From positions 3,275 to 67,274 of the forward strand of contig JAEDIC010000001.1 of assembly GCA_016292635.1 (NCBI GenBank): a stretch of 64,000 nt of DNA. Direction: 5' to 3'. The notes beneath the pieces are model-generated. The model made no database searches and was not told the origin of the DNA. It saw nothing but the letters and a program-made list of their open reading frames with translations. The position numbers and the translations under genes were made by a program. This stretch comes from Clostridia bacterium. GTDB taxonomy: Bacteria > Bacillota > Clostridia > Christensenellales > CAG-138. Positions 13,149 through 63,765 of the stretch are shown piece after piece (position 1 is the first letter of the stretch; each line of letters begins with the position of its first letter).

Positions 13149-13658
13149 TTACTCGGCAGCGGACTCGCCCTTCTTGGCGATCTGGTCCAGTACGATTGCC
13201 AGCCCGGAAACGGGGGACAGCATGCTGCCCAGCATCCTTGCAAGGAGAACCTCGCGGGAGGGCAGGTCAGCCAGGGTGTTCATCTCGGCGGCGCTGGATA
13301 CTGCGCCGTTGATGAGACCGCCCTTGATCTCGCACTTCTTGTACTTCTTGATGGCTTCCTTCAGCACCTTTGCAGGAGCAACGGCGTCTTCAACGCCGAA
13401 AGCAAAGGCGGAGGGGCCTTTCAACATCTCGCAGAAGCTCTCATCGATGCCGGCGGCCTTGGCTGCGCGCTCTACGATACCGTTCTTAAGAACTACGTAT
13501 TCCACGCCTGCCTTGCGCATATCGCTGCGGAGATTGGTAACCTCCTCGGCATTGAGTCCGCAATAGTCGAACACTACCAGAGACTGGGCAGCCTGGATCT
13601 TGGAAGCAACTTCCTCAACCTGAGCGGCCTTTGCCTGTATGTTCTGGATGTTTGCCAT
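13149..13658 (-). CDS. rplJ: 50S ribosomal protein L10
   Basis: 169 aa. The sequence and its position upstream of rplL are canonical. Confidence 0.97.
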   Translation of the reverse strand: MANIQNIQAKAAQVEEVASKIQAAQSLVVFDYCGLNAEEVTNLRSDMRKAGVEYVVLKNGIVERAAKAAGIDESFCEMLKGPSAFAFGVEDAVAPAKVLKEAIKKYKKCEIKGGLINGAVSSAAEMNTLADLPSREVLLARMLGSMLSPVSGLAIVLDQIAKKGESAAE

Positions 13659-13805
13659 GGTTTCACCTCCTGTTAGAATAAGAAAAAATCCTCCGCCGCA
13701 AGACAGAGGACGAAAAAGCGCATATAAACTAAGCTCTTATTCATCGCCTCGGCAGGATTTACGCTTGCGCTACCGGCTGTCTTGGGCAATAATTTTTGAT
13801 TTCCA
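13659..13805 (-). promoter_or_regulatory. candidate ribosomal protein L10 leader (autoregulatory attenuator)
   Basis: Minus-strand leader contains AGACAGCCGGTAGCGCAAGCGTAAATCCTGCCGAGG. A CCTC..GAGG hairpin with a TTTTTT run follows, just before the rplJ RBS. Resemblance to the Firmicute L10 leader is from memory. Confidence 0.55.
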
Positions 13806-13811
13806 CGGGGC

Positions 13812-13840
13812 AGTATATCAAACCGCCCCGCAGATGTCAA
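13812..13840 (-). promoter_or_regulatory. sigma-A type promoter for rplJ-rplL
   Basis: Minus strand reads TTGACA (13835-13840), a 17-nt spacer, then TATACT (13812-13817). Confidence 0.6.
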
Positions 13841-14020
13841 GCAAAATTTCGCAGGAATTCCGGCGATTTTTTCGCCGCATCCCACATTTCAGGCCAAGGG
13901 CGCATATCCCTTATGCCTTTGATCCGCTTTCATCCACATATGGGGCAAAAACGGATGGATTCCCTTAGGAATCGGTCCCCCATCAAACGCATTAAGCGCT
14001 TTAGCGAAATCGCCGGGCGA

Positions 14021-15993: not shown

Positions 15994-16209
15994 TTACAGG
16001 TTGGCAAGCAGGCCAAGACCTTTGCCGAATACCAGATCCAGAACGTATATGATTATTGCCATCAGTATGATGAAGGCGATAACGGTAAGAACGTAGGATG
16101 CCAGTTCCTTCTTGGTGGGCCAGGAGAGCTTCTTGACTTCGCCGGAAACTTCCTTGAAGAACTGCCTGATGCTTACCCTGTTCTTCTTTGCGTTGGTTTC
16201 GTTTGCCAT
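15994..16209 (-). CDS. secE: preprotein translocase subunit SecE
   Basis: 71 aa. FFKEVSGEVKKLSWPTKKEL followed by a single TM helix, positioned between rpmG and nusG. Confidence 0.9.
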   Translation of the reverse strand: MANETNAKKNRVSIRQFFKEVSGEVKKLSWPTKKELASYVLTVIAFIILMAIIIYVLDLVFGKGLGLLANL

Positions 16210-16228
16210 TGTTGATTACTCCTCGTAA

Positions 16229-16378
16229 TTACTTGGATTCCTTGTGCAGGGTGTGCTTGCGGCAGAAGCGGCAGTACTTCATGAACTCGATACGATCGGG
16301 ATCGTTCTTCTTGTTTTTGAAGGTGTTGTAGTTCCTCTGCTTGCATTCGGTGCAGGCCAATGTGATCTTTACGCGCAT
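16229..16378 (-). CDS. rpmG: 50S ribosomal protein L33
   Basis: 49 aa: [64 protein letters not shown]. The 114-aa ORF in the track is an upstream over-extension. Confidence 0.95.
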
Positions 16379-16479
16379 TTTTCTTTCTCCTTCTGTGAAT
16401 GTAAACGCAGAGCGGCTAAGCCCCGGCGCTACTGTTTTCGTACCTAAATAAACCCCCGCAAAGGGGGATACCTTAAGTA

Positions 16480-16507
16480 ATTTATCACAGAGACCGCCGT
16501 ATGTCAA
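16480..16507 (-). promoter_or_regulatory. candidate sigma-A promoter for rpmG-secE-nusG
   Basis: Minus strand reads TTGACA (16502-16507), a 16-nt spacer, then ATAAAT (16480-16485) preceded by TGTG. Confidence 0.45.
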
Positions 16508-16510
16508 TGC

Positions 16511-16540
16511 AAAAATCGCCCGAAGGGGGCGGTTTTTTGA
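16511..16540. terminator. intrinsic terminator after the 16611..17501 gene
   Basis: CGCCC-gaag-GGGGCG hairpin, flanked by an A-run and a T-run. Confidence 0.6.
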
Positions 16541-16610
16541 TATTTTTTCCCACCTTGTGTGCGGTCCCGTCAATTGTAGGCATATGTTGTGGTGGGCCGC
16601 CCGGGCAGGG

Positions 16611-17501
16611 CTACATCAAGCCGTATTTTGCATGAAGCTCGTACATCTCTCCGCTCTCCCACAGGTCGTTTATTACCATGCCTGCAATATCCGCCAGGAT
16701 GGAGTTGTCGGACGCGGTCATAACGCAGTAATCCACCGTTCCGAAGGAAAGGGACGTGGGCACTATGTCGTATTGGGTCTTTAACTGGTCAAAGTGCAGC
16801 CTGGTCAGGGCCACGCCGCCCACCTCGCCCTTCATAAGGCCTGTGATAAGGTCGTCATAGGAGGGATATGCCCGCTTTGTTATCACAAAGGAGGTATTCT
16901 CCGCCACAAAGGCGTCCACCAATGCGTCCTCGGCGCTGTTTCTAAGGGCATTATCCTGTATAAGGCCGATGGTAAAATTCTTCAGGGCAAAGGAGCTTGT
17001 GCCGCTCATTACCGCCAATATACACTCGTCGCTGTAGTAGCTTGAAGAATAATAATATGAAGGAGCCATGGAGGGGCTCATCATGGCGATCACCATATCC
17101 ACGGTGCCGTCGTCCAGCTTTGTGCTGCTGGTCATGGTGCTTACCTCCACCAGCTGCAAGCTGTTCTCCAAATCGGTCTCCGGCAGTATCCGCTCCGCAA
17201 TTCGCCTGGCCAGCGCCTGCTCAAGGCCGTCATCTCCGTTAAGGCCCGGCATATCTCTGCGTATACCCACCCTGAGCACGCCGCGCTCCTCTATTGTTTT
17301 TACCTCAGGGGTGGCCATGAGCTGGGTCTCCGTGCCCCCCACAAGCAGCAGTATTATAACCGCCAAAAGGCCCGCCCCAAACGCTATGGCTCTGCGCCAG
17401 GGCCTGCCCTCGTCTCCTATAAGGGTGAAATTCACCCGCTTGAAATTCAGCTGAAGGCGCTTTGCCCTGCGCCGCAGCCGCCTTGAGAAGCTCTCTTTCA
17501 T
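16611..17501 (-). CDS. membrane-anchored solute-binding protein (family 3 amino-acid-binding fold), orphan
   Basis: Preferred start is MKESFSRR at 17501. TM helix [19 protein letters not shown], then an SBP_bac_3-like body ([33 protein letters not shown]). No permease or ATPase gene lies adjacent. Confidence 0.65.
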
Positions 17502-50402: not shown

Positions 50403-50670
50403 GCAGTATGGGGCTTTTCCCTTGCAAAACCGCATAGCCGGGAGCCCATTCGAAATCATCCGGAAAGCCTTAGCCGAGCTTCCCTGTCGCCGCAGGATCA
50501 GACTTTTCCGCAATGTACAGCGCCAGACTGCGACGGCTGCATGACGGCATAATTTACAAACGAGAACAGGTTAAGCCTGCCAGATATGGTAACAAGCTCT
50601 ACGCCTGCGCATAACTCAAATATCCCCCCGAAGCTTTACGGGGGGATGAAGCCGTGTAGGTTATTTGGCT

Positions 50671-51735
50671 TTATAGCTTATATATACCTTTTTCCATTAT
50701 CATCTTGCCATCCACATATACGGCGCCCTCATGTCTGAGGTCTTTGACGATATCCCAGTGGAGCGCGGAATCATTTAAGCCGCCGCATTTAGGATAGCCG
50801 CGGCCCATTGCCAAATGTATGGTGCCGCCGATTTTTTCGTCGTAAAGTATATCGTAGCAATAGCGGTTGATGCCGCTGTTGAGGCCTATTCCGAATTCGC
50901 CTACTCGGCAGGCGCCCTCATCCATGTGAAGAATAGTATCCAGGAATTCGCCTTCAGTTTCGGAAGAATAATCAATCAGCTTTCCGTTTTCAAATCTCAG
51001 CCTTATTCCCTGAATCACCTTGCCTGCGTATACTCCGGGGAATTCAAAGTAAATATGACCGTTTATACTGTCCTCAACGGGCGAGGTAAACAGCTCTCCA
51101 TCCGGCATATTGCAGTGACCGTCGGCTATCTCATACTCTCTGCCCTTTGTAGAGAAGGTGATATCCGTTTCCTTGCCTGTGATGCGCACGGTAGTACCGG
51201 AAGTATACAGTTTCTTGATTTTTTCAAGATATTCCAGCTGAGAGTTCCAGTCCACCAACGTAGACGCAAAATAGAAATCCATCATATCGTCCAAAGGCAT
51301 GTTGGCCTGCTGCGCAAAGGATTCATTCGGCACTCTGGACAATACCCAACGGGTACGGTTTCGTCTTGCGGATATCACTCCCATGGAATGCTTGTGAAGC
51401 GACAGTACGTCTGAAGGTATGCCGTCAAATTCGGCCGGATTGCGGGCGCCGCGCAGGCCGATATAACAGTCTGCCCAGTCCATGCCCGCAAGGTGCATAT
51501 CGTTTACCCATTCCACCTGCTCTTTGCTGCCCAGCGTCATTATGTCTTTTTCCAAATATGCCGACTGAAACTCAATAAACGGCAGACCTCCGACGCGAAC
51601 CGCCTCCTGATAGCAGGCCCTGGCGAGAGGCCATGTTTCGATCTCCATCATTGTTATCAGCAGCTTCTCGCCCTTTTTAAGGCCTACAGAATAGTTCACC
51701 AACACCTTTGCAAGCTCACTCCATCTTTTATCCAT
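50671..51735 (-). CDS. M29-family aminopeptidase (AmpS/PepS-like)
   Basis: 354 aa. MDKRWSELAKVLVNYSVGLKKGEKLLI start and GGTIHLAMGRGYP metal-site region are typical of M29 thermophilic-metalloprotease-family aminopeptidases. Confidence 0.8.
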   Translation of the reverse strand: MDKRWSELAKVLVNYSVGLKKGEKLLITMMEIETWPLARACYQEAVRVGGLPFIEFQSAYLEKDIMTLGSKEQVEWVNDMHLAGMDWADCYIGLRGARNPAEFDGIPSDVLSLHKHSMGVISARRNRTRWVLSRVPNESFAQQANMPLDDMMDFYFASTLVDWNSQLEYLEKIKKLYTSGTTVRITGKETDITFSTKGREYEIADGHCNMPDGELFTSPVEDSINGHIYFEFPGVYAGKVIQGIRLRFENGKLIDYSSETEGEFLDTILHMDEGACRVGEFGIGLNSGINRYCYDILYDEKIGGTIHLAMGRGYPKCGGLNDSALHWDIVKDLRHEGAVYVDGKMIMEKGIYKL

Positions 51736-52736: not shown

Positions 52737-53198
52737 CTACTTTTCCATGCACCACATTATGGCATCCACTATTTTCTGATATCCGGTACAGCGGCATAGA
52801 TTCCCCTCGATAGCTCTTCGCACCTCCTGCGGCGTTCGGCATTTTTTCTGGCGCAGTATTGACACTCCCGTCATTACCATGCCAGGCGTGCAGTAGCCGC
52901 ATTGCGCAGCTCCAAAGGCCGCCAGAGCCTTCATCATTTTCTCGGCTGTGGGGTCTCCTCGCAGTCCTTCTATAGTAGTAACTTCGTGACCGTTTAAGCT
53001 GCAAACAGCCACCAGGCAAGAATTGACCGTTTTACCGTCCAGCATTACCGTGCACGCCCCGCACTCTCCTTCCCTGCAGGATTCTTTTGTACCTGTAAGG
53101 TGCAGCTTATCCCGCAAGAGGTCTATCAGCATCATCTGGGACGGTACGTCTACCGATATATGATTACCATTCAGTATAAACTGTACATTCTGCATCAT
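52737..53198 (-). CDS. [2Fe-2S]-binding small subunit of a xanthine dehydrogenase-family molybdoenzyme
   Basis: 153 aa. CREGECGACTV and CGYCTPGMVM...CRCTGY clusters. Confidence 0.9.
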   Translation of the reverse strand: MMQNVQFILNGNHISVDVPSQMMLIDLLRDKLHLTGTKESCREGECGACTVMLDGKTVNSCLVAVCSLNGHEVTTIEGLRGDPTAEKMMKALAAFGAAQCGYCTPGMVMTGVSILRQKKCRTPQEVRRAIEGNLCRCTGYQKIVDAIMWCMEK

Positions 53199-54049
53199 AA
53201 GCTTACCTCCAGCAGCTGCTCCAGGTTTCGCGCAAGTATGTTCCTAATGACCTTCATACGGTATTCGGCAGTGGCGCGAATATCGTCTATTGGGGTGCAT
53301 CGGGAGAGCATGGCCTGCACTGCGCCGGGGATATCGCCTTTTTCGGCCATCCTTTCCCCGTCGGCGTTCACTACTGTTTTAGAACTCATGGAGCCTAGCG
53401 CAATATGCACCTGACCTGTATTCTCCACAAGTATGGCGGCACTGGCCACCGATATTGCCATAGCAGAACGAAGGCCAACCTTTTCATATACATACCTGCT
53501 GCCGATATATGCAGGCATTTTAAAGCGCAGCAGCAGCTCATCGGGCCTTCTCAAGGTTTTTCGGGGCCCTATCACCAGCTGTGCGACCGGTATACTTCTC
53601 GTGCAAACCTCACCGTCTTCTTTATGGGCCAATACCGCCGTCGCTCCCAGGCACACCAGCGCAGTTAGGGCATCTCCCGCCGGACTTGCGTTCATTACGT
53701 TTCCGCCCACCGTGGCAACGGCCCTTATCTGTGGGCTGGCTATTTTCAGTGACGCATCAACAAGCAGAGGCGCAGCCTCCTTTATAAGGTCAGAATCTAT
53801 AATATCTGAGAACGTACAGCCAGCGCCCACGGACAGCACGCCTTGCTCCAAAGTTATCTCAGCGAGTTCAGGCAGTTCTCTTATGCACATCAGAGTTTCG
53901 CTTATCACGGGTGTCTTTGGATGCAGCCGAGCCGCAACAAAAAGGTCCGTGCCTCCTCCAGATACCGTAACATGCTCACCCTGCTCCGCAAGCAACGACA
54001 AGGCCTCGTCAAGTGAGCGGGGACATAATATTCGTTCGCACCCTATCAT
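53195..54049 (-). CDS. FAD-binding medium subunit of a xanthine dehydrogenase-family molybdoenzyme
   Basis: 284 aa. GGGTDLFV and ATVGGNVMNASPAGD motifs (CO dehydrogenase flavoprotein/FAD_binding_5 type). It overlaps both neighbouring genes by 4 nt. Confidence 0.88.
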   Translation of the reverse strand: MIGCERILCPRSLDEALSLLAEQGEHVTVSGGGTDLFVAARLHPKTPVISETLMCIRELPELAEITLEQGVLSVGAGCTFSDIIDSDLIKEAAPLLVDASLKIASPQIRAVATVGGNVMNASPAGDALTALVCLGATAVLAHKEDGEVCTRSIPVAQLVIGPRKTLRRPDELLLRFKMPAYIGSRYVYEKVGLRSAMAISVASAAILVENTGQVHIALGSMSSKTVVNADGERMAEKGDIPGAVQAMLSRCTPIDDIRATAEYRMKVIRNILARNLEQLLEVSL

Positions 54050-55527
54050 GATAAGCTCCTTTCCACAGCCTGCCTGAATTCTTCAAGCGCCTTTTTGCCC
54101 GCCGTGTATTCCGCATACGCCCGTTGGTAATACGCCGTAGCCTCAGCGTTTCGCGGAACAGGCCGCTCCTCGTCTCTTACACAGGCAGCAATAGCTCCAG
54201 CTCCATCCTGGTACAACCCAACGCCCAGGCCCGCTGTCATGGCGGCGCCCAGCAAACTATCCGCCACGGCACGGCGGCCGTTAATATCCAACACGTCGCA
54301 TACTATAGATCGCCAAAGCGGGCTTTTCATGCCCCCTCCGGTAAGCTTTATGTCGTTCCATGGATAGCCCATATTGCGGAAGAGGCTGCCCATATCCTTA
54401 AGTGCAAAGGCCAGCCCCTCAAATATGGCGCGAGCGCAGTCACCCCGGGTATGGTGGCGGCCCATCCCCATGAAGCAGGCTTCCGGCTTCTCCGTAGCGC
54501 TTGGCGAACCCCGCCCCAAAAGCCATGGATAGAATACTATTCCTCGGGCACCTGTCCCGCTTTTCTCCGCCTCCTCATTAAATATGTTCAGCCTGTTCTT
54601 AGGTGCGCAGTCGCCGTATGACATGTCCAGAAACCACTGCACAGTGTCTCCGGCGGTTTTTGTAAACCCGCCTGCCACATATTTGCCTTCCAAATAGGGC
54701 CAGCAAAACATTGAATGCTCATACATGAACTTGCCGGGCAGCTTTTTCTCCAGCACTACCCTGGCTATGCCATTGGTGCTCACACTTACGGCGCCGCTTC
54801 CCGGCGTCAGCGTACCTGCCCCAAACATGGCGGCTGCGCCGTCGTTAAGTCCGCAAACCACCGGCGTTCCCGCCTTAAGCCCGGTTTTCTCTGCGACTTC
54901 CTTGCTAAGGCCGCCCGCTACCGCTGTAGACGGCAATATTTCGTCCATCATTTCCTCTGAAAGGCCGCAGATGCCCAGCATGGACTTGTCCCACTTCACA
55001 TTTCCGGCGCTTGATGAGGGCTCGGTCACAAATCTGCCAGTAAGAAAGTGTAATAGAAATCCCTTAATATCGTGTATGTGACTTATTTTTCCAACCATAT
55101 CCGGCCACTGACCCAGTGACCATCTCAACCTTGCCGCAAATCCCGTCTGCGGCATGCCGTGGCCGACCCAGTCATAACCTATTTCCTCAAAAAGCTTGTA
55201 TCCCTCAGAGGCGCAACGGTTATCCTGCCATATCGCCACGGGGCACAGGGACGCGCCGTGTTTATCTACAAATACGACGCCAGGCCCATGAGCCGACACA
55301 CCTATTGCGGCCACGTCCATTTCTCCGTCCATATGCCGTGCCGCATCGGCAAGAACGCCTGTTATGGCGCTTATCCAGTCTCCCGGCTGCTGCTGCGCCC
55401 CATTGGGAATGGAGTGATCTGTTTCAACGGGCCTGGAGGCCACTATCAACTGTTTTCCGTCTAGGCTGTATACGGCGCACTTGCACAGGGTCGTACCCAG
55501 ATCCAGCCCCATTATTACAGGCCTCAT
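54046..55527 (-). CDS. FGGY-family carbohydrate kinase
   Basis: Start is MRPVIMGLDLGTT at 55527, an ATGA overlap with the upstream stop. FGGY N- and C-domain patterns (GVSAHGPGVVFVD, LTGGGMKSPLWRSIVCDVL). Confidence 0.88.
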   Translation of the reverse strand: MRPVIMGLDLGTTLCKCAVYSLDGKQLIVASRPVETDHSIPNGAQQQPGDWISAITGVLADAARHMDGEMDVAAIGVSAHGPGVVFVDKHGASLCPVAIWQDNRCASEGYKLFEEIGYDWVGHGMPQTGFAARLRWSLGQWPDMVGKISHIHDIKGFLLHFLTGRFVTEPSSSAGNVKWDKSMLGICGLSEEMMDEILPSTAVAGGLSKEVAEKTGLKAGTPVVCGLNDGAAAMFGAGTLTPGSGAVSVSTNGIARVVLEKKLPGKFMYEHSMFCWPYLEGKYVAGGFTKTAGDTVQWFLDMSYGDCAPKNRLNIFNEEAEKSGTGARGIVFYPWLLGRGSPSATEKPEACFMGMGRHHTRGDCARAIFEGLAFALKDMGSLFRNMGYPWNDIKLTGGGMKSPLWRSIVCDVLDINGRRAVADSLLGAAMTAGLGVGLYQDGAGAIAACVRDEERPVPRNAEATAYYQRAYAEYTAGKKALEEFRQAVERSLS

Positions 55528-57731
55528 ATTTCGCCTCTCCTTTTTTCCAGGGCAAGCAGCACCTTGTCCGGCGACGCGGGCAAGTCGGTTATCCATATTC
55601 CGGCAGCGTCGTGTATTGCTGCTATGACTGCGGGGGCCGCTGCGGTTATGGCCAGCTCTGCAAGACCCTTTGTGTGGATGTAGCCGGCGTCAGCCGGCTT
55701 ATCAATGAATTTTACGCTGATGTTCGGAGCGTCTGAAGCGGTCGGAAACAGGTAATCCGAAAAGCCATGCTGCAAAGGCCTTCCGTCTTTTTGCATGAAG
55801 TTTTCCATAAGAGCCATTCCCAGACCCTGTGTAGCCGCGCCCTGCACCTGTCCTTCGGCGCCTGTTTGGTTTATCACGGTGCCGCAATCGCAGACTATGG
55901 AAAGATCCAATACGCGAACCATGCCAGTATCTATATCCACCAATACCTCTGCGCGCTGTATATCGTAGCCGTACTGATTTACCGGATATCCGTGCCCATT
56001 ATCATCGGGGGCAGATGTGAGCGGCGGCATATATGAAGCATGAACCTCCATGCCCGCACCCTTTTCCTCAAGCCAGGCAGCCAGCTCAGGCCCGCTTTGC
56101 GGGCCGCCTGCCGCGCATATTTTCTCCTTTAATCTGATGGCAGCGAGATAAGCCGCATTGCCGGTTGTACTTGTCTGACGAGATGCGCCAGACGGACCTC
56201 CCTCCGGATACCGGGTGTTAGGCCGGCAGTACCTTATCCTATCCACAGGATAGCCATTCATTACCCTGGATACAATTAACGACAACGTGGTTTCCAAACC
56301 CTGGCCCAGGTCGTTCGCGCAGGTCATTATCTCGATTATCCCGCCGGACACAACGCTAAGCTTTACCGTAGATTCATCATTATGACCAAAGTGGAGGTTA
56401 CAGCCTTGAGACGCCCCGGCGTACCCTACTCCATAAAGGTAGCGAGGAGATACGGCATCCTTGTGCAAAGGCAATTTACTCACCTTTTCAATACATTCAT
56501 CATACCTGGCACAGGGTGGAACCAAATGCTCCGACAGCGTATGGTCGCCGTCGCGTATAGCGTTGACCGAGCGTATATCGAGCTGGCTCATTCCCAGCCG
56601 CTCTGCCGCCATTCCCATCATGCACTCGTTTGCGAAGGTGATGCCTGTCATTCCCCAGGAGCGCATCGCGCCCATTGCCACGCCGTTTGTGTAGTAGACC
56701 TTGGTGTCCACCCTTACATTGGGCATACGATAAGGGCCGCAAGCATTGACCGAAATGAATTTGGCTATATTCTCTCCGTGATGAGAAGAAGATCCGGTAT
56801 TCAACCGCACCCAGTAATGCGCGCCCAGTATCCTGCCCTTCTCATCAAAGCCCATACGGACGTCAATTTCCTGTCCATGGCGCTTTGTATGGAATACCAT
56901 TTCTTCATCCCGATCAATATATACGCGCACCGAGCGCTTCGCATAGAAAGCTAAAAGAGCAGCATAGGACGCTATCAGCCCATCGTCCTTTCCGCCGAAA
57001 GAGCCTCCCATAAAAGGCAGCTCTACATGCACCTTATCCAACGGCATGTTTAATACCGCCGCAAGTATCTCCCGCTCATAAGTAACCGTGTGACAACCCA
57101 GGCGAACATCTAATGAACCATCGTCATTGAAGCGGGCTATGGCACAGTCGTTTTCCAGGTAACAATGCTCAATCGGCGGAAGAGTAAAGCTGTGCTCCAC
57201 GCACACCGGAGCGCCGGCAATAGCATCGTCTGCGTTGCCCGTAGAGTAATTATACTCTCGCAGCAAGTTGGAGTCCCGCACCATGTCCGGCCGCGCCCTG
57301 GGGCTATCCGGCAACACAGCTTCGCTCAGCTCATACACCGCAGGCAGCTCAACATATTGCACATCCACCGCCTCTGCCGCAGCCCTGGCCTGCTCTTTTG
57401 TCTCCGCCGCCACAAGGGCGACGGCATCATATGCACCGTATGTCTCCTCATCGCACAGAATGGGCTGATCCATCACGGTTTTTCCAATACGATTCTCCCC
57501 GGGAATATCTCCGGCTGTGACCACCGCGTGAACGCCGTCCATATTACGGGCAGCCGAAACGTCTATCTTCAGTATTCGACACCTTGGCACCGGCGCACGC
57601 ACTATAACGCCTTCCAGCGTTCCAGGCCACTTTATGTCACTTACAAACACTGCGGAGCCATCTGCCTTAGGCATGCATGTATGCATATGGGCTCGCATCA
57701 GTTCATCGGCAAACAAATCTTTCTGCTGCAT
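55524..57731 (-). CDS. molybdopterin-binding large subunit of a xanthine dehydrogenase/aldehyde oxidase-family enzyme
   Basis: 735 aa. a/b-hammerhead N-terminus and Mo-binding domains (GGSFGGKD, GQGLETTL). C-terminal KGLAELAI carries the family Glu. Confidence 0.9.
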   Translation of the reverse strand: MQQKDLFADELMRAHMHTCMPKADGSAVFVSDIKWPGTLEGVIVRAPVPRCRILKIDVSAARNMDGVHAVVTAGDIPGENRIGKTVMDQPILCDEETYGAYDAVALVAAETKEQARAAAEAVDVQYVELPAVYELSEAVLPDSPRARPDMVRDSNLLREYNYSTGNADDAIAGAPVCVEHSFTLPPIEHCYLENDCAIARFNDDGSLDVRLGCHTVTYEREILAAVLNMPLDKVHVELPFMGGSFGGKDDGLIASYAALLAFYAKRSVRVYIDRDEEMVFHTKRHGQEIDVRMGFDEKGRILGAHYWVRLNTGSSSHHGENIAKFISVNACGPYRMPNVRVDTKVYYTNGVAMGAMRSWGMTGITFANECMMGMAAERLGMSQLDIRSVNAIRDGDHTLSEHLVPPCARYDECIEKVSKLPLHKDAVSPRYLYGVGYAGASQGCNLHFGHNDESTVKLSVVSGGIIEIMTCANDLGQGLETTLSLIVSRVMNGYPVDRIRYCRPNTRYPEGGPSGASRQTSTTGNAAYLAAIRLKEKICAAGGPQSGPELAAWLEEKGAGMEVHASYMPPLTSAPDDNGHGYPVNQYGYDIQRAEVLVDIDTGMVRVLDLSIVCDCGTVINQTGAEGQVQGAATQGLGMALMENFMQKDGRPLQHGFSDYLFPTASDAPNISVKFIDKPADAGYIHTKGLAELAITAAAPAVIAAIHDAAGIWITDLPASPDKVLLALEKRRGEI

Positions 57732-57747: not shown

Positions 57748-58572
57748 TCATTCCTTCACTCCGCCTGAGGTCAATCCAGATATGATGGATTTCTGTATGA
57801 AAATAAACAGGATTATTATAGGAACGCTGGCTATTACCGAAGTAGTGAGCAGACTCGCATAATCCACAGAAAACTGACCTATGGTAGAAGCTATCTTCGC
57901 GGTTATAAGCTGTTTTGAAGTAGAGCTAATAAAGGTTATAGCAAACAAGTATTCATTCCATGCCATGATAAAAACATAGGTGAATGTTGCCACCAGTCCA
58001 GGCAGTGCCATGGGCAACGATATGCGGAATATGGTTCCCATGCGGGTCAAACCGTCCACCATTCCGCTTTCTTCTACCTGAACGGGAATTGAATCTATAA
58101 CCGATATGCTGTTCCACACCGCAAATGGTAGGTTCAGCATTGTGTTTGCCAGAATTATCGGCACAAAGCTATCATACAGCCCCAGCTTTACCACCCAAAC
58201 AAATAGAGCTATAGCCAGCAGCAGCGCCGGGAATGTACGCAAGCACATAAATATGCTCATTAGAAAGCTGCGCCCTTTGAATTCAAACCTGGAAAAACCA
58301 TAGGCTGTTGTCACAGCTATTACCTCTGTAAGCAGGGCCGCTGAAAAAGAACAGAGAACGGAGTTTCCTATTGAGCGCATGGACGATGAGTCGCTGAAAA
58401 CCTTGATATAATTCTCCAGCGTAAACTTCTGAGGAAATATAGAGCTTGCAAAGGTGTCTCCGCTTCCTCTGAAAGTATTGATAAGCATCCACAGGTATGG
58501 CGTAAACAGCACGGCAACTATCAAAGTCGCTATAGTATACAGCGCTATTCTCTTTATGGTTTTACTTTTCAT
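57748..58572 (-). CDS. carbohydrate ABC transporter permease (MalG-like, CUT1)
   Basis: Start is MKSKTIKR at 58572, after AAGGAGTGATCTGT. An alternative GTG at 58581 overlaps the upstream stop. Six TM helices, with EAA-like loop VEESGMVDGLTRMGTIFRISLPM. Confidence 0.88.
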   Translation of the reverse strand: MKSKTIKRIALYTIATLIVAVLFTPYLWMLINTFRGSGDTFASSIFPQKFTLENYIKVFSDSSSMRSIGNSVLCSFSAALLTEVIAVTTAYGFSRFEFKGRSFLMSIFMCLRTFPALLLAIALFVWVVKLGLYDSFVPIILANTMLNLPFAVWNSISVIDSIPVQVEESGMVDGLTRMGTIFRISLPMALPGLVATFTYVFIMAWNEYLFAITFISSTSKQLITAKIASTIGQFSVDYASLLTTSVIASVPIIILFIFIQKSIISGLTSGGVKE

Positions 58573-58577
58573 ACAGA

Positions 58578-59468
58578 TCACTCCTTGTTCATGCGACGAA
58601 GCACCACAACAGAAAACACCACCGCTACCAGGAACATTATCACGCCTATTGCCGAAGCTTGGCCGAACTGATAGCTGTTAAACGCAGTACGGTACGCATA
58701 TGTTGCGAGCACCTCCGTAGAATAAAGAGGGCCGCCCTCTGTCATTATCCAGGTAAGATCCATATATGTAAACGTCGCGCAGAAATTGAACAGCATCAGC
58801 GTAAGAAGGTTATTTTTAAGTATCGGCAGCGTTATGCGGAAAAACTGCTGTCTTCCGTTAGCGCCGTCTATGATAGCCGCCTCATAAAGATTTTCATTGA
58901 TTGCCTGCAGCGAGGCTAGCAAGGAAAGGAAGTAAAACGGCATATACATATACACATTTGTCAAAATAATTGTAAGTAGCGCCGTCTTAGTGCTCCCCAA
59001 TGGGTCAAACACTATGCTTGAGCACAGCTTTTGCAGTATTTGGGCAATTGGCCCTATTTGCGGATGCAGCATGACCTTGGCCATTACCGCCACTACTGTG
59101 GGAGACAGCGCCCAGGAAACCAGCACTATTGTGCGCGTGACACGCAGATAGCGTATATTCAGGCATTTTTGATTCAGAAGCACCGCCAGCGCCAAACCTA
59201 CAGAAAGGTTCAGCAGCATAACGACTCCGGCATACACAAAGCTTTGCCCCGTAATCTGCCAGAACCTCGTATTGGAGAATACTTTTATAAAGTTCTCTAA
59301 GCCTATAAATGACGGGTCTATTGCTATACCTTTTCCCGATGAGAAAAAGGCAAGGTATATAACAAACGCGGCGGGATATACCGCCATTATCATAAAGAAA
59401 AGCACACCGGGCGAAGAGAATAGATAACCCGCATTTATTTTTTTACCAAATATTCTTATATCCTGCAT
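58578..59468 (-). CDS. carbohydrate ABC transporter permease (MalF-like, CUT1)
   Basis: 296 aa. EAA loop YEAAIIDGANGRQQFFRITLP. Confidence 0.88.
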   Translation of the reverse strand: MQDIRIFGKKINAGYLFSSPGVLFFMIMAVYPAAFVIYLAFFSSGKGIAIDPSFIGLENFIKVFSNTRFWQITGQSFVYAGVVMLLNLSVGLALAVLLNQKCLNIRYLRVTRTIVLVSWALSPTVVAVMAKVMLHPQIGPIAQILQKLCSSIVFDPLGSTKTALLTIILTNVYMYMPFYFLSLLASLQAINENLYEAAIIDGANGRQQFFRITLPILKNNLLTLMLFNFCATFTYMDLTWIMTEGGPLYSTEVLATYAYRTAFNSYQFGQASAIGVIMFLVAVVFSVVVLRRMNKE

Positions 59469-59590: not shown

Positions 59591-60892
59591 TTAGCCGCCA
59601 TAGTACTCGTCAAGTATAACGTTCCACTCCTCGGCCATAGCATTCAGGGCAGCCATAGGCTCCATCTCACCCATGTATACAGCCTGGATATATCCACGCA
59701 TTATGGAGTTGAGCGCATCGGAATCAGGATAATGATTGGCTACTATAGTACCGGGATCCCTCAGCTGCTGCAGCTTCATCTTATAATCCTGAGTATTGTA
59801 GTAATCCGTATCGGCAGTCTCAGACAGAGGAGATACCTGACCGAACTGCTCGCACCAGTAATTGAGGGAGTCATCGCTGGTCATGAATTCAATGAATCGC
59901 CAAGCGGCTTCCTTGTTGTCGCTCTTGGAAGACATACCGAGAGCGGTGCCGCCCGCCAGGGAACCGGAAGTGACGCCAGTGGGCATGGGCAGGGCAACTA
60001 TCTCATAGTTATCGCCGGCCTTCTGCTGGATGGTGCTCTGGAACCAGGGGCCATCAGAGAACAGCGCCAGCTTGCCGGAGGCCATCAGCTCGCCCTGCTG
60101 ATCCACGTTGGTAGAAGCGATGCTGGGAGGAATTATGCCAGCATCTATCATGGACAGGATATACTCGAACGCAGCCACGCCTGCCTCATTATTGAAGGCG
60201 GCCTTATTGTTTTCGTCTATGAGCTCGCAGCCGGCCTGCAACAGCACGGACTGGAACTGCCATTCTGTACCGGTGTCACTGGAGTCGCCACAGATGGAGT
60301 AGCCGTACACGCCGTTTGCAGGGTCAGTCAGCTGCTCGGCTATTGCATAGAACTCGTTCCAAGTCCAGCCATCGTAAGGCAGTTCTATGCCCGCCTGCTC
60401 AAACAGTGTGGCATTAGCAAACATTACGGAGCAACCACTGCGGTAAGGTATGGCATAAATGTGGCCTTCCCACTCGCCGTAGCCTTGGCCGGCCTCAGTG
60501 AAGCGGGACTTGAAGCTATCTATGTCTATGAATTCATCCAGCTCTGCAGCCAGGCCGTTTGTTGCTGCGGATATGGTCCAGAAGGTCATATAAACATCAG
60601 GCGCTGCATTTGCCTCGGTTTGCAGAACAAGCTGATCATAAGTATCGTTTGCAGCTACTTCGTTTACCTCAACCTTTATGTCGGGGTTTTCCTCCTCGAA
60701 TTTCTCAATCAGAGTGTACATGCACTCAGGAGAACCTGCCTGGGCCATAAAGGTGATGGTAGTTACATCGCCTGCTTGTCCTGCGGCAGCCGTACCACTG
60801 CCAGAATCTGCTGCGGCATTTGGCTGAGCCGAGCAGGCAACAGCACTGAATGCCAATACGGCAATCAGCAACAATGACATCAATTTCTTCAT
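59591..60892 (-). CDS. extracellular solute-binding lipoprotein (family 1, sugar type)
   Basis: 433 aa. Lipobox FSAVACS, with an SBP_bac_1-like body. Confidence 0.85.
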   Translation of the reverse strand: MKKLMSLLLIAVLAFSAVACSAQPNAAADSGSGTAAAGQAGDVTTITFMAQAGSPECMYTLIEKFEEENPDIKVEVNEVAANDTYDQLVLQTEANAAPDVYMTFWTISAATNGLAAELDEFIDIDSFKSRFTEAGQGYGEWEGHIYAIPYRSGCSVMFANATLFEQAGIELPYDGWTWNEFYAIAEQLTDPANGVYGYSICGDSSDTGTEWQFQSVLLQAGCELIDENNKAAFNNEAGVAAFEYILSMIDAGIIPPSIASTNVDQQGELMASGKLALFSDGPWFQSTIQQKAGDNYEIVALPMPTGVTSGSLAGGTALGMSSKSDNKEAAWRFIEFMTSDDSLNYWCEQFGQVSPLSETADTDYYNTQDYKMKLQQLRDPGTIVANHYPDSDALNSIMRGYIQAVYMGEMEPMAALNAMAEEWNVILDEYYGG

Positions 60893-61869: not shown

Positions 61870-62682
61870 CTATATCCTGCTGCGGAAGCTGCGCACCTTA
61901 TCCATAAAGCGCAGTACCCGCTCCTTGTCCACGGCATTTTCAAATATGCCGTCCACTTTGAATGTTGTACCAACTACAGCTCCGTCGGCCACGCTAAGCT
62001 GCTTTTCAATATTTTCAAGGCGACAGCCGGTATTGGCAAACACTACTGTGTTTGGAACCATGCTCTTTACATTTTTAAGCAGCTGGTTGTCGGTTTCTTC
62101 GCCCGCGGTCAAGCCTGAAACGCAAAGCGCGTCGGCCTTGCAATTGAAAACTGTGGTCTTGGCTATCTGGGCAGTATCTCTGTTCGCAAGGTATCGTGCG
62201 GCTTCGGGTACAATATTGAAAAGAAGCTTAACGTTTTCTCCGCCAACGGCCATACGATGCCTTGACACCTCGCCGTAGTTAGTGTTCCACAGACCAAAGT
62301 CACTGGCATATACGCCGGTGAATATTTCGCGTACAAACTTTGCGCCGGTAGCTACCGCTATATCTATTGACGCTCCTCCATCCCACAGGGCATTGACGCC
62401 GAAGGGAATTTTTATTTCAGGCAACAGCTGACCTATTATGCGCGCCATTGCAGCAACGGTCTCCTTACGAACGTCGGTAAGATATGGAAGGCTGAACTCA
62501 TTGGAAAACATTACCGCATCGACGCCGCCCTCCTGAAGGGCCATAAAGTCCTTATATGCCTGCTCCACTACCCACTCCATGCCTTTTTCCTTGGAGTATC
62601 CCGGGTCTCCCGGCAGGGGTTGCAAATGGCACATGGCAATTACCGCTTTTTCAGTACCGATAACGTCTTTTAACCAGCTCAT
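61870..62682 (-). CDS. BtpA/SgcQ family TIM-barrel protein
   Basis: 270 aa. AVIAMCHLQPLPGDPGY, GGVDAVMFSNEFSLPY, PFGVNALWD, FVREIFTG and VFANTG follow the BtpA family pattern. Confidence 0.75.
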   Translation of the reverse strand: MSWLKDVIGTEKAVIAMCHLQPLPGDPGYSKEKGMEWVVEQAYKDFMALQEGGVDAVMFSNEFSLPYLTDVRKETVAAMARIIGQLLPEIKIPFGVNALWDGGASIDIAVATGAKFVREIFTGVYASDFGLWNTNYGEVSRHRMAVGGENVKLLFNIVPEAARYLANRDTAQIAKTTVFNCKADALCVSGLTAGEETDNQLLKNVKSMVPNTVVFANTGCRLENIEKQLSVADGAVVGTTFKVDGIFENAVDKERVLRFMDKVRSFRSRI

Positions 62683-62943
62683 TTCGAGTCCTCCTGGATA
62701 TAATTATTATTTGCGAGGTATTGCAAATCGATTGCTCAGGATAAATAGATTAGTTAGTTTCGTTTTTGTGCTTTTAATGTTACCAATTATATCATTCTGC
62801 CTTATGATTCGCAATATTATATTTCGTTTCATTACAAATCGTAACTTTATTGTTTCATTATTTTGTCAATTGAATTGACTTTATGTTAATTGTATGGCAA
62901 TATGTAAATAAGGAATTAACGACATTGGAGTTTGTTATTGGCT

Positions 62944-63765
62944 ATGAGAAAAGCGGAGCGTTTACTGCAGCTTCAGGAAATACTTATAAGTAAAAACGAG
63001 GTTCTTGTTGAGGATCTTGCCTCACAGTTTGGCGTTTCCTGCGTGACCATACGAAAAGATTTAAACGAATTGGAAAGCCAGGGTTATGTGCAGCGTACAT
63101 ACGGCGGCGCGGTGATCAAGCAGCAGGGAATCCACTCCTTCTTCCCGCGCTCCATAATTCGCAGCGAAATACTAAACTTCAGCCAGGATAAACGCTACAT
63201 CGCCACCATAGCCCAGCAGCTGGTGCATGACGGAGACAATGTTTTTTTAGGCTGCGGCGACACCTGCGCCGCCATAGCCCAGGCGCTGCTTAACCACAAG
63301 GCCAACTTTGTTACCAATAACATATTGGTTGCCGCTATTCTTTCTACAAACCCTCACGCGGTGGTTCGCGTCACAGGCGGCACCCTCAGTGGCTACGACA
63401 GGCATTTTCTGAGCGGCGATCTGTTTACCCGCTCAATGGAAAACATATATTTTAAATATGCCTTTTTGGGGGCTGCCGGCGCTGATATTCACAATGGTTT
63501 TACCACATATTCCGACTTCGAGCATAGCGTATGCGATACTGTGCGCGCAGTATCAGACACACTCGTATTTGCCCTCGGCTCTTCAAAGTTTGGAAAAACC
63601 AACTTTATGCATATTGGAAATCTTAATGTAGCTGACCTGATAATTACAGATGCCGGAATACCGGACGAGTACCAGCAGTACTTTGACCGCCACGGCATAA
63701 CGGTGCTTACCTCTGTCAATAAGCTCCAGTTAATGCCGAGGCACAACACGGATATTTCGGTTTAG
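62944..63765 (+). CDS. DeoR/GlpR-family transcriptional regulator
   Basis: ATG at 62944. The track starts at TTG 62932. HTH VEDLASQFGVSCVTIRKDLNELESQGYVQRTYGGAV and a DeoR C-terminal sugar-phosphate sensor domain. It is divergent from the 11-gene operon. Confidence 0.88.
   Translation: MRKAERLLQLQEILISKNEVLVEDLASQFGVSCVTIRKDLNELESQGYVQRTYGGAVIKQQGIHSFFPRSIIRSEILNFSQDKRYIATIAQQLVHDGDNVFLGCGDTCAAIAQALLNHKANFVTNNILVAAILSTNPHAVVRVTGGTLSGYDRHFLSGDLFTRSMENIYFKYAFLGAAGADIHNGFTTYSDFEHSVCDTVRAVSDTLVFALGSSKFGKTNFMHIGNLNVADLIITDAGIPDEYQQYFDRHGITVLTSVNKLQLMPRHNTDISV

Follow-up and report, generated by a model that had tools for sequence, protein, structure and literature searches.

The question raised by this locus is why the gene for a sugar kinase should lie among the subunit genes of a molybdenum (Mo) hydroxylase. 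The window, that is, the whole stretch of 64,000 nucleotides (nt) analysed here (contig JAEDIC010000001.1 of Clostridia bacterium assembly GCA_016292635.1, positions 3,275 to 67,274), carries on its minus strand a four-gene block in which the large molybdopterin subunit (L) of a xanthine dehydrogenase (XDH)-type enzyme is followed by a carbohydrate kinase of the FGGY family (K), and only then by the flavin adenine dinucleotide (FAD)-binding medium subunit (M) and the 2Fe-2S small subunit (S). This order, reported in the initial annotation, is borne out by the open reading frames (ORFs), their Pfam domains and their coordinates, and reading of the coding strand confirmed that each of the three junctions is an ATGA-type overlap of 4 nt. 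The initial annotation went further and suggested that the kinase might be physically associated with the redox enzyme. Our analysis leads to another answer, which we hold to be the probable one: the kinase and the Mo enzyme would be co-translated pathway partners, encoded in one and the same operon, uncharacterised and DeoR-controlled, for the catabolism of an imported carbohydrate-like compound, and the L-K-M-S arrangement (hereafter, the wedge) would have formed once.

To place the wedge against a baseline, each of 30 related genomes contributed its best XDH-family large-subunit locus. L has an M or S gene as its immediate neighbour in every one of these loci (in the orders L-M, S-L, M-S-L or L-S), and a gene interposed beside L was found in none of the 30, so that the premise of contiguous XDH-type subunit genes is sound and the wedge is unusual. 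The L-K-M-S order recurs, moreover, in 15 other loci from Bacillota, Chloroflexota and Planctomycetota (L005-L008, L012-L016, L018, L019, L022, L031, L032 and L076). Four contigs with K orthologues at 65, 54, 50 and 44% identity have the same operon with the same L-K-M-S order, and an alignment-based scan, with one genome per species, gave ten further loci with K-M-S or L-K-M-S, namely one from an Oscillospiraceae metagenome-assembled genome (MAG), eight from Chloroflexota (mostly Anaerolineae) and one Planctomycetota fragment; a single-protein pattern scan of the species genomes returned no matches. The fragment L076 shows L-K-(M). In the kinase tree the wedge kinases make up one clade, with a Shimodaira-Hasegawa-like approximate likelihood ratio test (SH-aLRT) value of 100, and the internal topology of the L-subunit tree is the same, which indicates that the wedge arose once and that the block has co-diverged since. 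The wedge thus appears to be an old, single-origin gene-order variant of the XDH-family cluster, the kinase gene having presumably lodged between L and M in the ancestor of one operon clade. Recurrence in three phyla also disposes of the idea that K is a recent, lineage-specific insertion, which would have undercut the initial annotation. The Chloroflexota wedge operons are rearranged, with BtpA, two IF-2B genes and M29 preceding the genes for a substrate-binding protein (SBP) and two permeases (P) and then L-K-M-S, and the seven-gene block from SBP to S is intact in them. In these same operons L is split into two overlapping genes of ~425 and ~325 codons, in the order L1-L2-K-M-S (L013 7760-9999, with equivalents in L014, L018 and L019); a split large subunit is also found in the nicotinate dehydrogenase of Eubacterium barkeri.

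What do the overlapping junctions mean? The 4-nt ATGA overlap is the commonest type of overlap in bacterial operons, and the three junctions therefore show tight packing and are no oddity in themselves. Shine-Dalgarno (SD)-like motifs end 5-7 nt before the respective ATG of K, M and S (Table 1), and there is a fourth overlap, GTGA at 58581-58578, between the two permease genes. The mechanical ORF list puts the kinase start at 55596 (516 aa); the start at 55527 is preferred since it fits the SD motif as well as the N-termini and lengths of the orthologues, which are mostly 488-499 aa long (480-505 in two loci) and start at the same M..(I/L)GLDLGTT position. Among the wedge loci the L/K junction ranges from -19 to +10 nt, the M/S junction from -16 to +12 nt and the K/M junction from -41 to +38 nt, apart from a single value of 88 nt from an apparently degraded locus, and an SD-like motif stands ahead of K in most of them. 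A fusion of L and K through frameshifting at the ATGA was considered and rejected, as there is no slippery heptamer and the junction varies in this way among orthologues. The block has the features expected of translationally coupled pairs, with stop/start overlaps and an SD motif inside the upstream gene, and tight junctions in the 15 related loci. Co-production from one mRNA via coupled translation is accordingly a plausible and natural reading of the sequence.

The sister operons described below suggest why there should be three overlaps in a row. Two of the three have an ATGA overlap between L and M themselves, and a gene inserted between coupled L and M would break the coupling unless it were coupled on both sides. 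The three overlaps would then pass ribosomes from L to K to M to S: ribosomes ending L would re-initiate on K, then on M and then on S at the overlapping stop/start codons. Re-initiation of this kind would tie the synthesis of M and S to that of L in spite of the gene that intervenes. Most simply, then, the overlaps may be explained by a ribosome hand-over that keeps the L:M:S balance and produces comparable amounts of K as a by-product.

The nearest outgroup of L (35-37% identity) is located in a sister type of operon, termed Type II, of which we have three lineages (L073, L074 and L075) with L subunits 58-67% identical among themselves. Their gene set is orthologous (BtpA, L, M, S, one IF-2B, SBP, both permeases and K), with M29 also present in L074 and L075, while the L073 locus stops inside K. 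In these operons L-M-S is contiguous and K comes after the permeases, ~7 kb away. A third arrangement lacks the Mo enzyme. In L009 (an Anaerolineales MAG) the kinase branches inside the wedge clade, and the locus is devoid of L, M and S, the operon consisting of BtpA, two IF-2B genes, M29, an F420-type luciferase-like (LLM) oxidoreductase, a different ATP-binding cassette (ABC) system, an amidase and K. Likewise, K occurs with the BtpA/IF-2B/M29 core and without a Mo enzyme in L027 and L029. In the Mo-free loci L023, L024 and L028 a gene for a non-homologous F420-type LLM oxidoreductase lies directly 5′ of K; the two genes overlap by 1 nt (TGATG) in L024 and are separated by 1 nt in L028 and by ~8 nt in L023. 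The coupling of an oxidoreductase gene to K has thus arisen with two unrelated enzyme families, which suggests that the kinase and its oxidoreductase are closely linked. The oxidoreductase is thus the exchangeable part of the system, and BtpA, the IF-2B-like proteins, M29 and K are its core.

Could K nevertheless be a component of the enzyme, as the initial annotation had it? It would then bind L, M and S (LMS) stoichiometrically and channel a reactive aldehyde or lactone, with the wedge and its overlaps delivering K at 1:1. That 15 loci of three phyla preserve L-K-M-S and its tight junctions, even as other operon parts moved, would fit such a metabolon, as would the lack of anything interposed beside L in the 30 baseline loci, the direct coupling of an unrelated oxidoreductase gene to K in L023, L024 and L028, and the ability of FGGY kinases to form protein complexes (LsrK-HPr structures are among the fold matches of K). 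The comparative evidence, however, argues against an obligate complex of K with LMS. Type II operons keep L-M-S together with K ~7 kb off, and L009, inside the wedge clade, has lost L, M and S and retained K. The kinase fold is ordinary from end to end, and when a docking module was sought in the wedge-clade kinases only indels of 1-3 residues and 14 clade-specific positions emerged, with no clade-specific insertion longer than 3 residues. Among 96 kinase homologues and 120 listed L homologues no protein fusing FGGY and XDH domains was found, the only fusions being S-L. Furthermore, conservation extends to the whole seven-gene block SBP-P-P-L-K-M-S and is not specific to the junctions of K. 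A stable complex is therefore unsupported, and we regard the metabolon as quite improbable, although K and LMS may associate weakly or in particular lineages.

At the other extreme, K might have landed between L and M by chance, functionally unrelated to them, and have been kept since its removal would disrupt the operon. Gene order by itself is indeed no proof of a functional link, and overlaps of 4 nt are the commonest kind in bacteria. Contiguity is not essential for assembly either, given that the glyceraldehyde oxidoreductases of Sulfolobus tokodaii assemble with two L genes that lie a long way from the M/S genes (PMC4726530). Such an accident we consider very improbable indeed: orthologues of K accompany L, M and S in two operon layouts, a third layout has them together with the BtpA/IF-2B/M29 core, and the trees of the kinase and of L agree. 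Co-occurrence of K and LMS across the three gene orders instead points to one shared pathway, in which the two would act as partners.

The identity of the partners was examined in turn. L shows the domains of an XDH/Mo-hydroxylase large subunit, an a/b-hammerhead and two that bind molybdopterin (PF01315, 86 bits; PF02738, 208 bits; PF20256, 187 bits), and the presence of a separate FAD subunit and of a subunit with two [2Fe-2S] domains is that of the LMS type. The catalytic Glu (E869 in the aldehyde oxidoreductase of Desulfovibrio gigas, E1261 in bovine XDH) aligns with GVGEL of 1sij, the AEL motif that contains it is invariant in seven aligned L subunits, and a GGKDD motif is conserved as well. 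The closest solved structure to L is the D. gigas aldehyde oxidoreductase, whereas its best NCBIfam scores are with pucD/XdhA-type models, at 425.8 for pucD (cut-off 783.65) and 351.9 for XdhA (cut-off 780), which does not make it a xanthine dehydrogenase. Of the purine-binding pair, Asp replaces Glu, and the Arg position varies (R/K/D/W). The glyceraldehyde dehydrogenase models NF041018-NF041020 (alpha, beta and gamma) were not reached either (258.8 vs 790, 115.6 vs 350 and 152.6 vs 290), and L, M and S fall under every curated cut-off, whether for xanthine dehydrogenase, glyceraldehyde dehydrogenase, PaoABC, carbon monoxide (CO) dehydrogenase or 4-hydroxybenzoyl-CoA reductase. They are thus assigned by sequence to the XDH/Mo-hydroxylase family and to none of its curated functional subgroups, and comparison of the L active site gave mixed signals as to the substrate. 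The genome of the window encodes XdhC-like maturation factors elsewhere and has three XDH-family sets, including a contiguous L-M-S on contig C20:26807-30334 and an S-L pair on C22:83922-86432; the bacterial family as a whole is rich in such enzymes, with up to 15 large-subunit genes per genome (related genomes G011-G023).

K, for its part, is predicted to be an ordinary, catalytically active FGGY enzyme. It scores 129 bits with FGGY_N and 73 bits with FGGY_C, and the catalytic and ATP-binding residues D9, G11, T12, T13, D229 and G397-G398 are invariant across 17 orthologues; the notion of a degenerate scaffold protein was rejected on the ground that every catalytic motif is invariant. Its AlphaFold model (predicted local distance difference test (pLDDT) score 89.8) can be superposed along its entire length on xylulokinase and gluconate kinase, with a template modelling (TM) score of 0.87 (5vm1 and 3gbt). 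K is nearest to these two kinases, and remains below the cut-offs of both models (XylB, 245.8 bits vs 380.25; GntK, 154.9 vs 648.55). Its orthologue group comprises ~30 sequence clusters at 36-100% identity, after which there is a score gap to other FGGY kinases. K belongs to a distinct subfamily that is neither XylB nor GntK.

The four genes are part of a run of eleven closely packed minus-strand genes (62682-50671, ~12 kb), which begins with BtpA and ends with M29 and is preceded by a divergent DeoR-family regulator gene (Table 1). The regulator gene also flanks the operon in L005, L006, L007 and L073-L075. The best promoter-like site lies 5′ of BtpA and the best terminator-like hairpin 3′ of M29, which fits one 12-kb transcript, and a consensus pattern scan detected no site of comparable quality of either kind inside L-K-M-S; all eleven genes would accordingly be carried on one mRNA. 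The last protein matches aminopeptidases of the PDB over residues 207-316 only, and a second M29 paralogue is encoded in the genome of the window at C22:119111-120181. The operon of the window has no gene for an ABC ATPase, unlike L005 and L006, where a MalK-like gene follows M29. An ATPase with 76% identity is encoded at contig C37:28236-29426 of the same genome and probably serves the importer of the operon in trans.

Table 1. Positions of the operon genes, candidate signals and overlapping junctions in the window; the last line refers to regions of the Type II loci.
Feature	Positions	Strand	Remarks
DeoR-family regulator gene	62932..63765	+	Divergent from operon; HTH_DeoR + DeoRC
Best promoter-like site	62786..62814	-	5′ of BtpA; TTGCGA-17-TATAAT with TG; 10/12 consensus matches; pattern match only
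BtpA/SgcQ-family TIM-barrel protein, operon gene 1	61870..62682	-	PF03437, 306 bits
IF-2B-family paralogue a, 293 aa	60985..61866	-	PF01008
CUT1-type sugar ABC substrate-binding protein (SBP)	59591..60892	-	SBP_bac_1 / SBP_bac_8; PDB relatives are sugar-binding proteins
ABC permease 1	58578..59468	-	BPD_transp_1; UgpA/MalF-like
ABC permease 2	57748..58581	-	BPD_transp_1; GTGA overlap with permease 1
Mo-hydroxylase large (molybdopterin) subunit L, 735 aa	55524..57731	-	Ald_Xan_dh_C PF01315, MoCoBD_1 PF02738, MoCoBD_2 PF20256
L stop / K start overlap	55524..55527	-	ATGA; GGAGAGG ends 6 nt before ATG
FGGY-family carbohydrate kinase K, 493 aa	54046..55527	-	FGGY_N PF00370 + FGGY_C PF02782
K stop / M start overlap	54046..54049	-	ATGA; GGAAAGGAG upstream
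FAD-binding medium subunit M, 284 aa	53195..54049	-	FAD_binding_5 + CO_deh_flav_C
M stop / S start overlap	53195..53198	-	ATGA; GGAGG upstream
2Fe-2S small subunit S, 153 aa	52737..53198	-	Fer2 + Fer2_2
IF-2B-family paralogue b, 318 aa	51754..52710	-	PF01008; best PDB matches 5yfs, 3a11 (ribose-1,5-bisphosphate isomerase closest)
M29-family metallohydrolase-like protein, last operon gene	50671..51735	-	PF02073, 203 bits
Best terminator-like hairpin	50622..50647	-	24 nt past M29 stop; 9-bp stem, 7 GC pairs; pattern match only
Type II desulfidase/methyltransferase regions	L073 ~13265-13912, 16105-16749; L074 14318-15675, 11642-12796; L075 8016-9374

The related operons have additional genes of their own. 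Type II operons carry two genes for TudS-related putative desulfidases (scored in L074, with unnamed ORFs at matching places in L073 and L075), and L073 and L074 have an MtaA-like methyltransferase of the URO-D family, with corrinoid-protein and RACo-like genes nearby in L073. The desulfidase and methyltransferase genes hint at a thio- or methylthio-substituted substrate. The Mo-free operons have other importers, of HAAT or CUT2 type (L009 4400-9992, and 3′ of the kinase in L027 and L029), and FmdA/AmdA (formamidase-type), creatininase-family and ATC-hydrolase-like genes are found beside K in operons of this kind.

Which reactions could link the two enzymes? The proximity of L to the D. gigas aldehyde oxidoreductase, of the BtpA phosphate-binding barrel to 2-keto-3-deoxy-6-phosphogluconate (KDPG) aldolases and of K to gluconate kinase and xylulokinase suggests that kinase and oxidoreductase act on free metabolites of one pathway, probably at consecutive or near-consecutive steps, for which a stable complex of the two would not be required. 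In the chemistry that we prefer on the strength of these likenesses, LMS would oxidise a sugar-derived aldehyde or hemiacetal, either at C1 of the sugar or as an aldehyde freed by aldolase-type cleavage, and K would phosphorylate a sugar or sugar acid. Mo hydroxylases with a part in sugar breakdown have been published before, namely the glyceraldehyde oxidoreductases of S. tokodaii (PMC4726530) and the deoxyribose dehydrogenase of Pseudomonas simiae (PMC6365646). The AF2 model of BtpA (pLDDT 87.7) is a TIM barrel, with class I KDPG aldolase, PcrB/GGGPS, HisF and ThiE as its nearest folds at TM ~0.6; K12, K206 and K242 are invariant or nearly so, and BtpA/SgcQ has no sequence relatives in the PDB. 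The aldolase idea for BtpA is a weak one, the modelled fold matching generic phosphate-binding barrels at this TM score. As for the IF-2B paralogues, taken as the two groups formed by the copies of the window and their orthologues in L005-L029 and L073-L075, both have Ser or Thr for the catalytic Cys of MtnA and ribose-1,5-bisphosphate isomerase and do not qualify as such isomerases. Paralogue b has Ser for this Cys and keeps the catalytic Asp, and the group of paralogue a has Glu at the Asp position. Judging from these residues, the paralogues are probably not ordinary sugar-1-phosphate isomerases.

Several points weigh against our reading. K has been held exactly between L and M over a long divergence (kinases ~40% identical), which pathway membership alone does not explain; such long retention is also compatible with selection for a stoichiometric or physical link. 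Both the single transcript and the coupled translation are deduced from sequence only. The related loci all come from metagenome assemblies, and L022 and L032 look degraded or mis-assembled. With regard to chemistry, the missing catalytic Cys of the IF-2B paralogues may mean that the assumed sugar-phosphate logic is wrong, and the reaction could be the hydroxylation of a heterocycle instead; L keeps an acidic residue (in GGKDD) at the position of the XDH purine-binding Glu, and related operons include desulfidase-, amidohydrolase- and methyltransferase-type genes.

These chemical points lead to the main chemical rival, in which the substrate would be of a glycoside or nucleoside type: LMS would hydroxylate an N- or S-heterocycle on, or released from, the sugar, and K, the IF-2B-like proteins and BtpA would process the sugar half, so that K and LMS would each have their own half of a single substrate and would not share consecutive intermediates. 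Besides the conserved GGKDD, the pucD/XdhA-type models that score best with L fit this proposal, and so do the two desulfidase genes of Type II, the methyltransferase gene of L073 and L074, the creatininase-, ATC-hydrolase- or FmdA-type amidohydrolases beside K in Mo-free versions, and the closeness of IF-2B paralogue b to ribose-1,5-bisphosphate isomerase, an enzyme of nucleoside-ribose salvage. The operon, however, contains no nucleosidase or phosphorylase gene, L is far under the xanthine dehydrogenase cut-offs (by pucD, as given above), the second purine-binding residue has no conserved Arg as its counterpart, the solved structure closest to L is an aldehyde oxidoreductase and the importer is of the sugar (CUT1) type. 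On balance, such a substrate seems unlikely, though it is a serious candidate. A bolder proposal makes K and the Mo hydroxylase an obligate functional pair, either associated or strictly sequential on a phosphorylated or unstable intermediate, with the wedge marking a four-protein unit of a new anaerobic, Mo-dependent oxidative route for a sugar or a deoxy- or thio-sugar; to this we would give little credence. Partnership of K and LMS in one pathway, on free metabolites, is the reading that we retain.

How the operon reached its present hosts may be judged from its distribution. No K orthologue was found in eight congeners, 32 further relatives and 398 other sampled genomes of the class, in which the operon is presumably absent too, and the whole operon is therefore accessory within the lineage of the window. 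The GC content of the operon (50.8%, vs 51.7% for the genome) shows no compositional anomaly, and GC at third codon positions (GC3) is 0.60 for K, 0.60 for SBP and 0.57 for L, so that composition gives no sign of a recent transfer. IS110/IS66 transposase genes lie beside the regulator gene in L005 and L006. Horizontal spread of the operon is likely, and the L-K-M-S block with the importer genes ahead of it would have passed, by inheritance and by transfer, as one unit between anaerobic members of Bacillota, Chloroflexota and Planctomycetota.

XDH-family enzymes are known mainly for acting on purines, other heterocycles, aldehydes and CO. In the conserved operon described here, which is found in strict anaerobes, one of them is tied to a sugar importer, a kinase for sugars and enzymes of the sugar-phosphate type. 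This points to a Mo-dependent step, so far undescribed, in the catabolism of carbohydrate-like compounds, and the wedge provides a clean genomic marker for the pathway. We found no paper on this operon type in the literature on BtpA/SgcQ or on FGGY kinases with XDH-family enzymes, and the uncharacterised catabolic operon merits study for its own sake. Taken together, the wedge, contiguous L-M-S and Mo-free architectures amount to a natural experiment that separates the core of BtpA, IF-2B-like proteins, M29 and kinase from an exchangeable oxidoreductase and importer. They also advise caution, in that a deeply conserved interposition with overlapping codons need not imply a protein complex.

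How does the locus compare with known systems? The canonical XDH-family operons are xdhABC of Escherichia coli, pucCDE of Bacillus subtilis and coxMSL of Oligotropha. These, like the C20 L-M-S set of the same genome, have the same three subunit types and the same Pfam domains as the operon studied here, in which the catalytic Glu and the cofactor motifs are conserved; unlike them, it has a kinase between L and M, and its context is one of sugar import and sugar-phosphate-type enzymes, not of purine, CO or aromatic catabolism. With XylB and GntK, K shares the full-length fold, the catalytic Asp and the ATP-binding motifs, at scores under both cut-offs.

Among published cases, the 3-hydroxypyridine dehydrogenase HpdA1-4 of Ensifer adhaerens HP1 has partners resembling pyruvate phosphate dikinase (PPDK), orf9 and orf10, which are genetically essential by an unsolved mechanism (bioRxiv 10.1101/2020.01.08.898148). 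It is the only published case that we found of phosphotransferase genes in a Mo-hydroxylase cluster that are needed for the hydroxylase reaction. It differs in that the phosphotransferases are of the phosphoenolpyruvate-utilising/PPDK type and not FGGY, that the substrate is an aromatic heterocycle and that the phosphotransferase genes flank the subunit genes without splitting them. In Pseudomonas simiae, a Mo-dependent deoxyribose dehydrogenase (PS417_10890/10885 plus cytochrome c) was shown genetically to oxidise the sugar at C1 to the lactone (PMC6365646). The reaction of this enzyme, which is of the wider CoxL/IorB type, opens a catabolic route with a kinase at its end; the enzyme itself, however, is aerobic and consists of two subunits of the IorAB type, with cytochrome c as partner and without a FAD subunit, and the glycerate kinase is encoded elsewhere. 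The glyceraldehyde oxidoreductases GAOR1-3 of S. tokodaii belong to the non-phosphorylative Entner-Doudoroff branch, where they are followed by glycerate kinase (PMC4726530, PMC2063504); the archaeal enzyme acts after an aldolase and before the kinase (PMC4726530). It differs from the present system in that the archaeal kinase is a glycerate kinase and not FGGY, that no kinase gene lies inside the archaeal subunit genes, that the hosts here are anaerobic bacteria and that the subunit scores are below the GAOR cut-offs. The likeness lies in the logic: in both, an LMS Mo hydroxylase would act on a sugar-derived aldehyde in a pathway that also needs a class I aldolase and a kinase.

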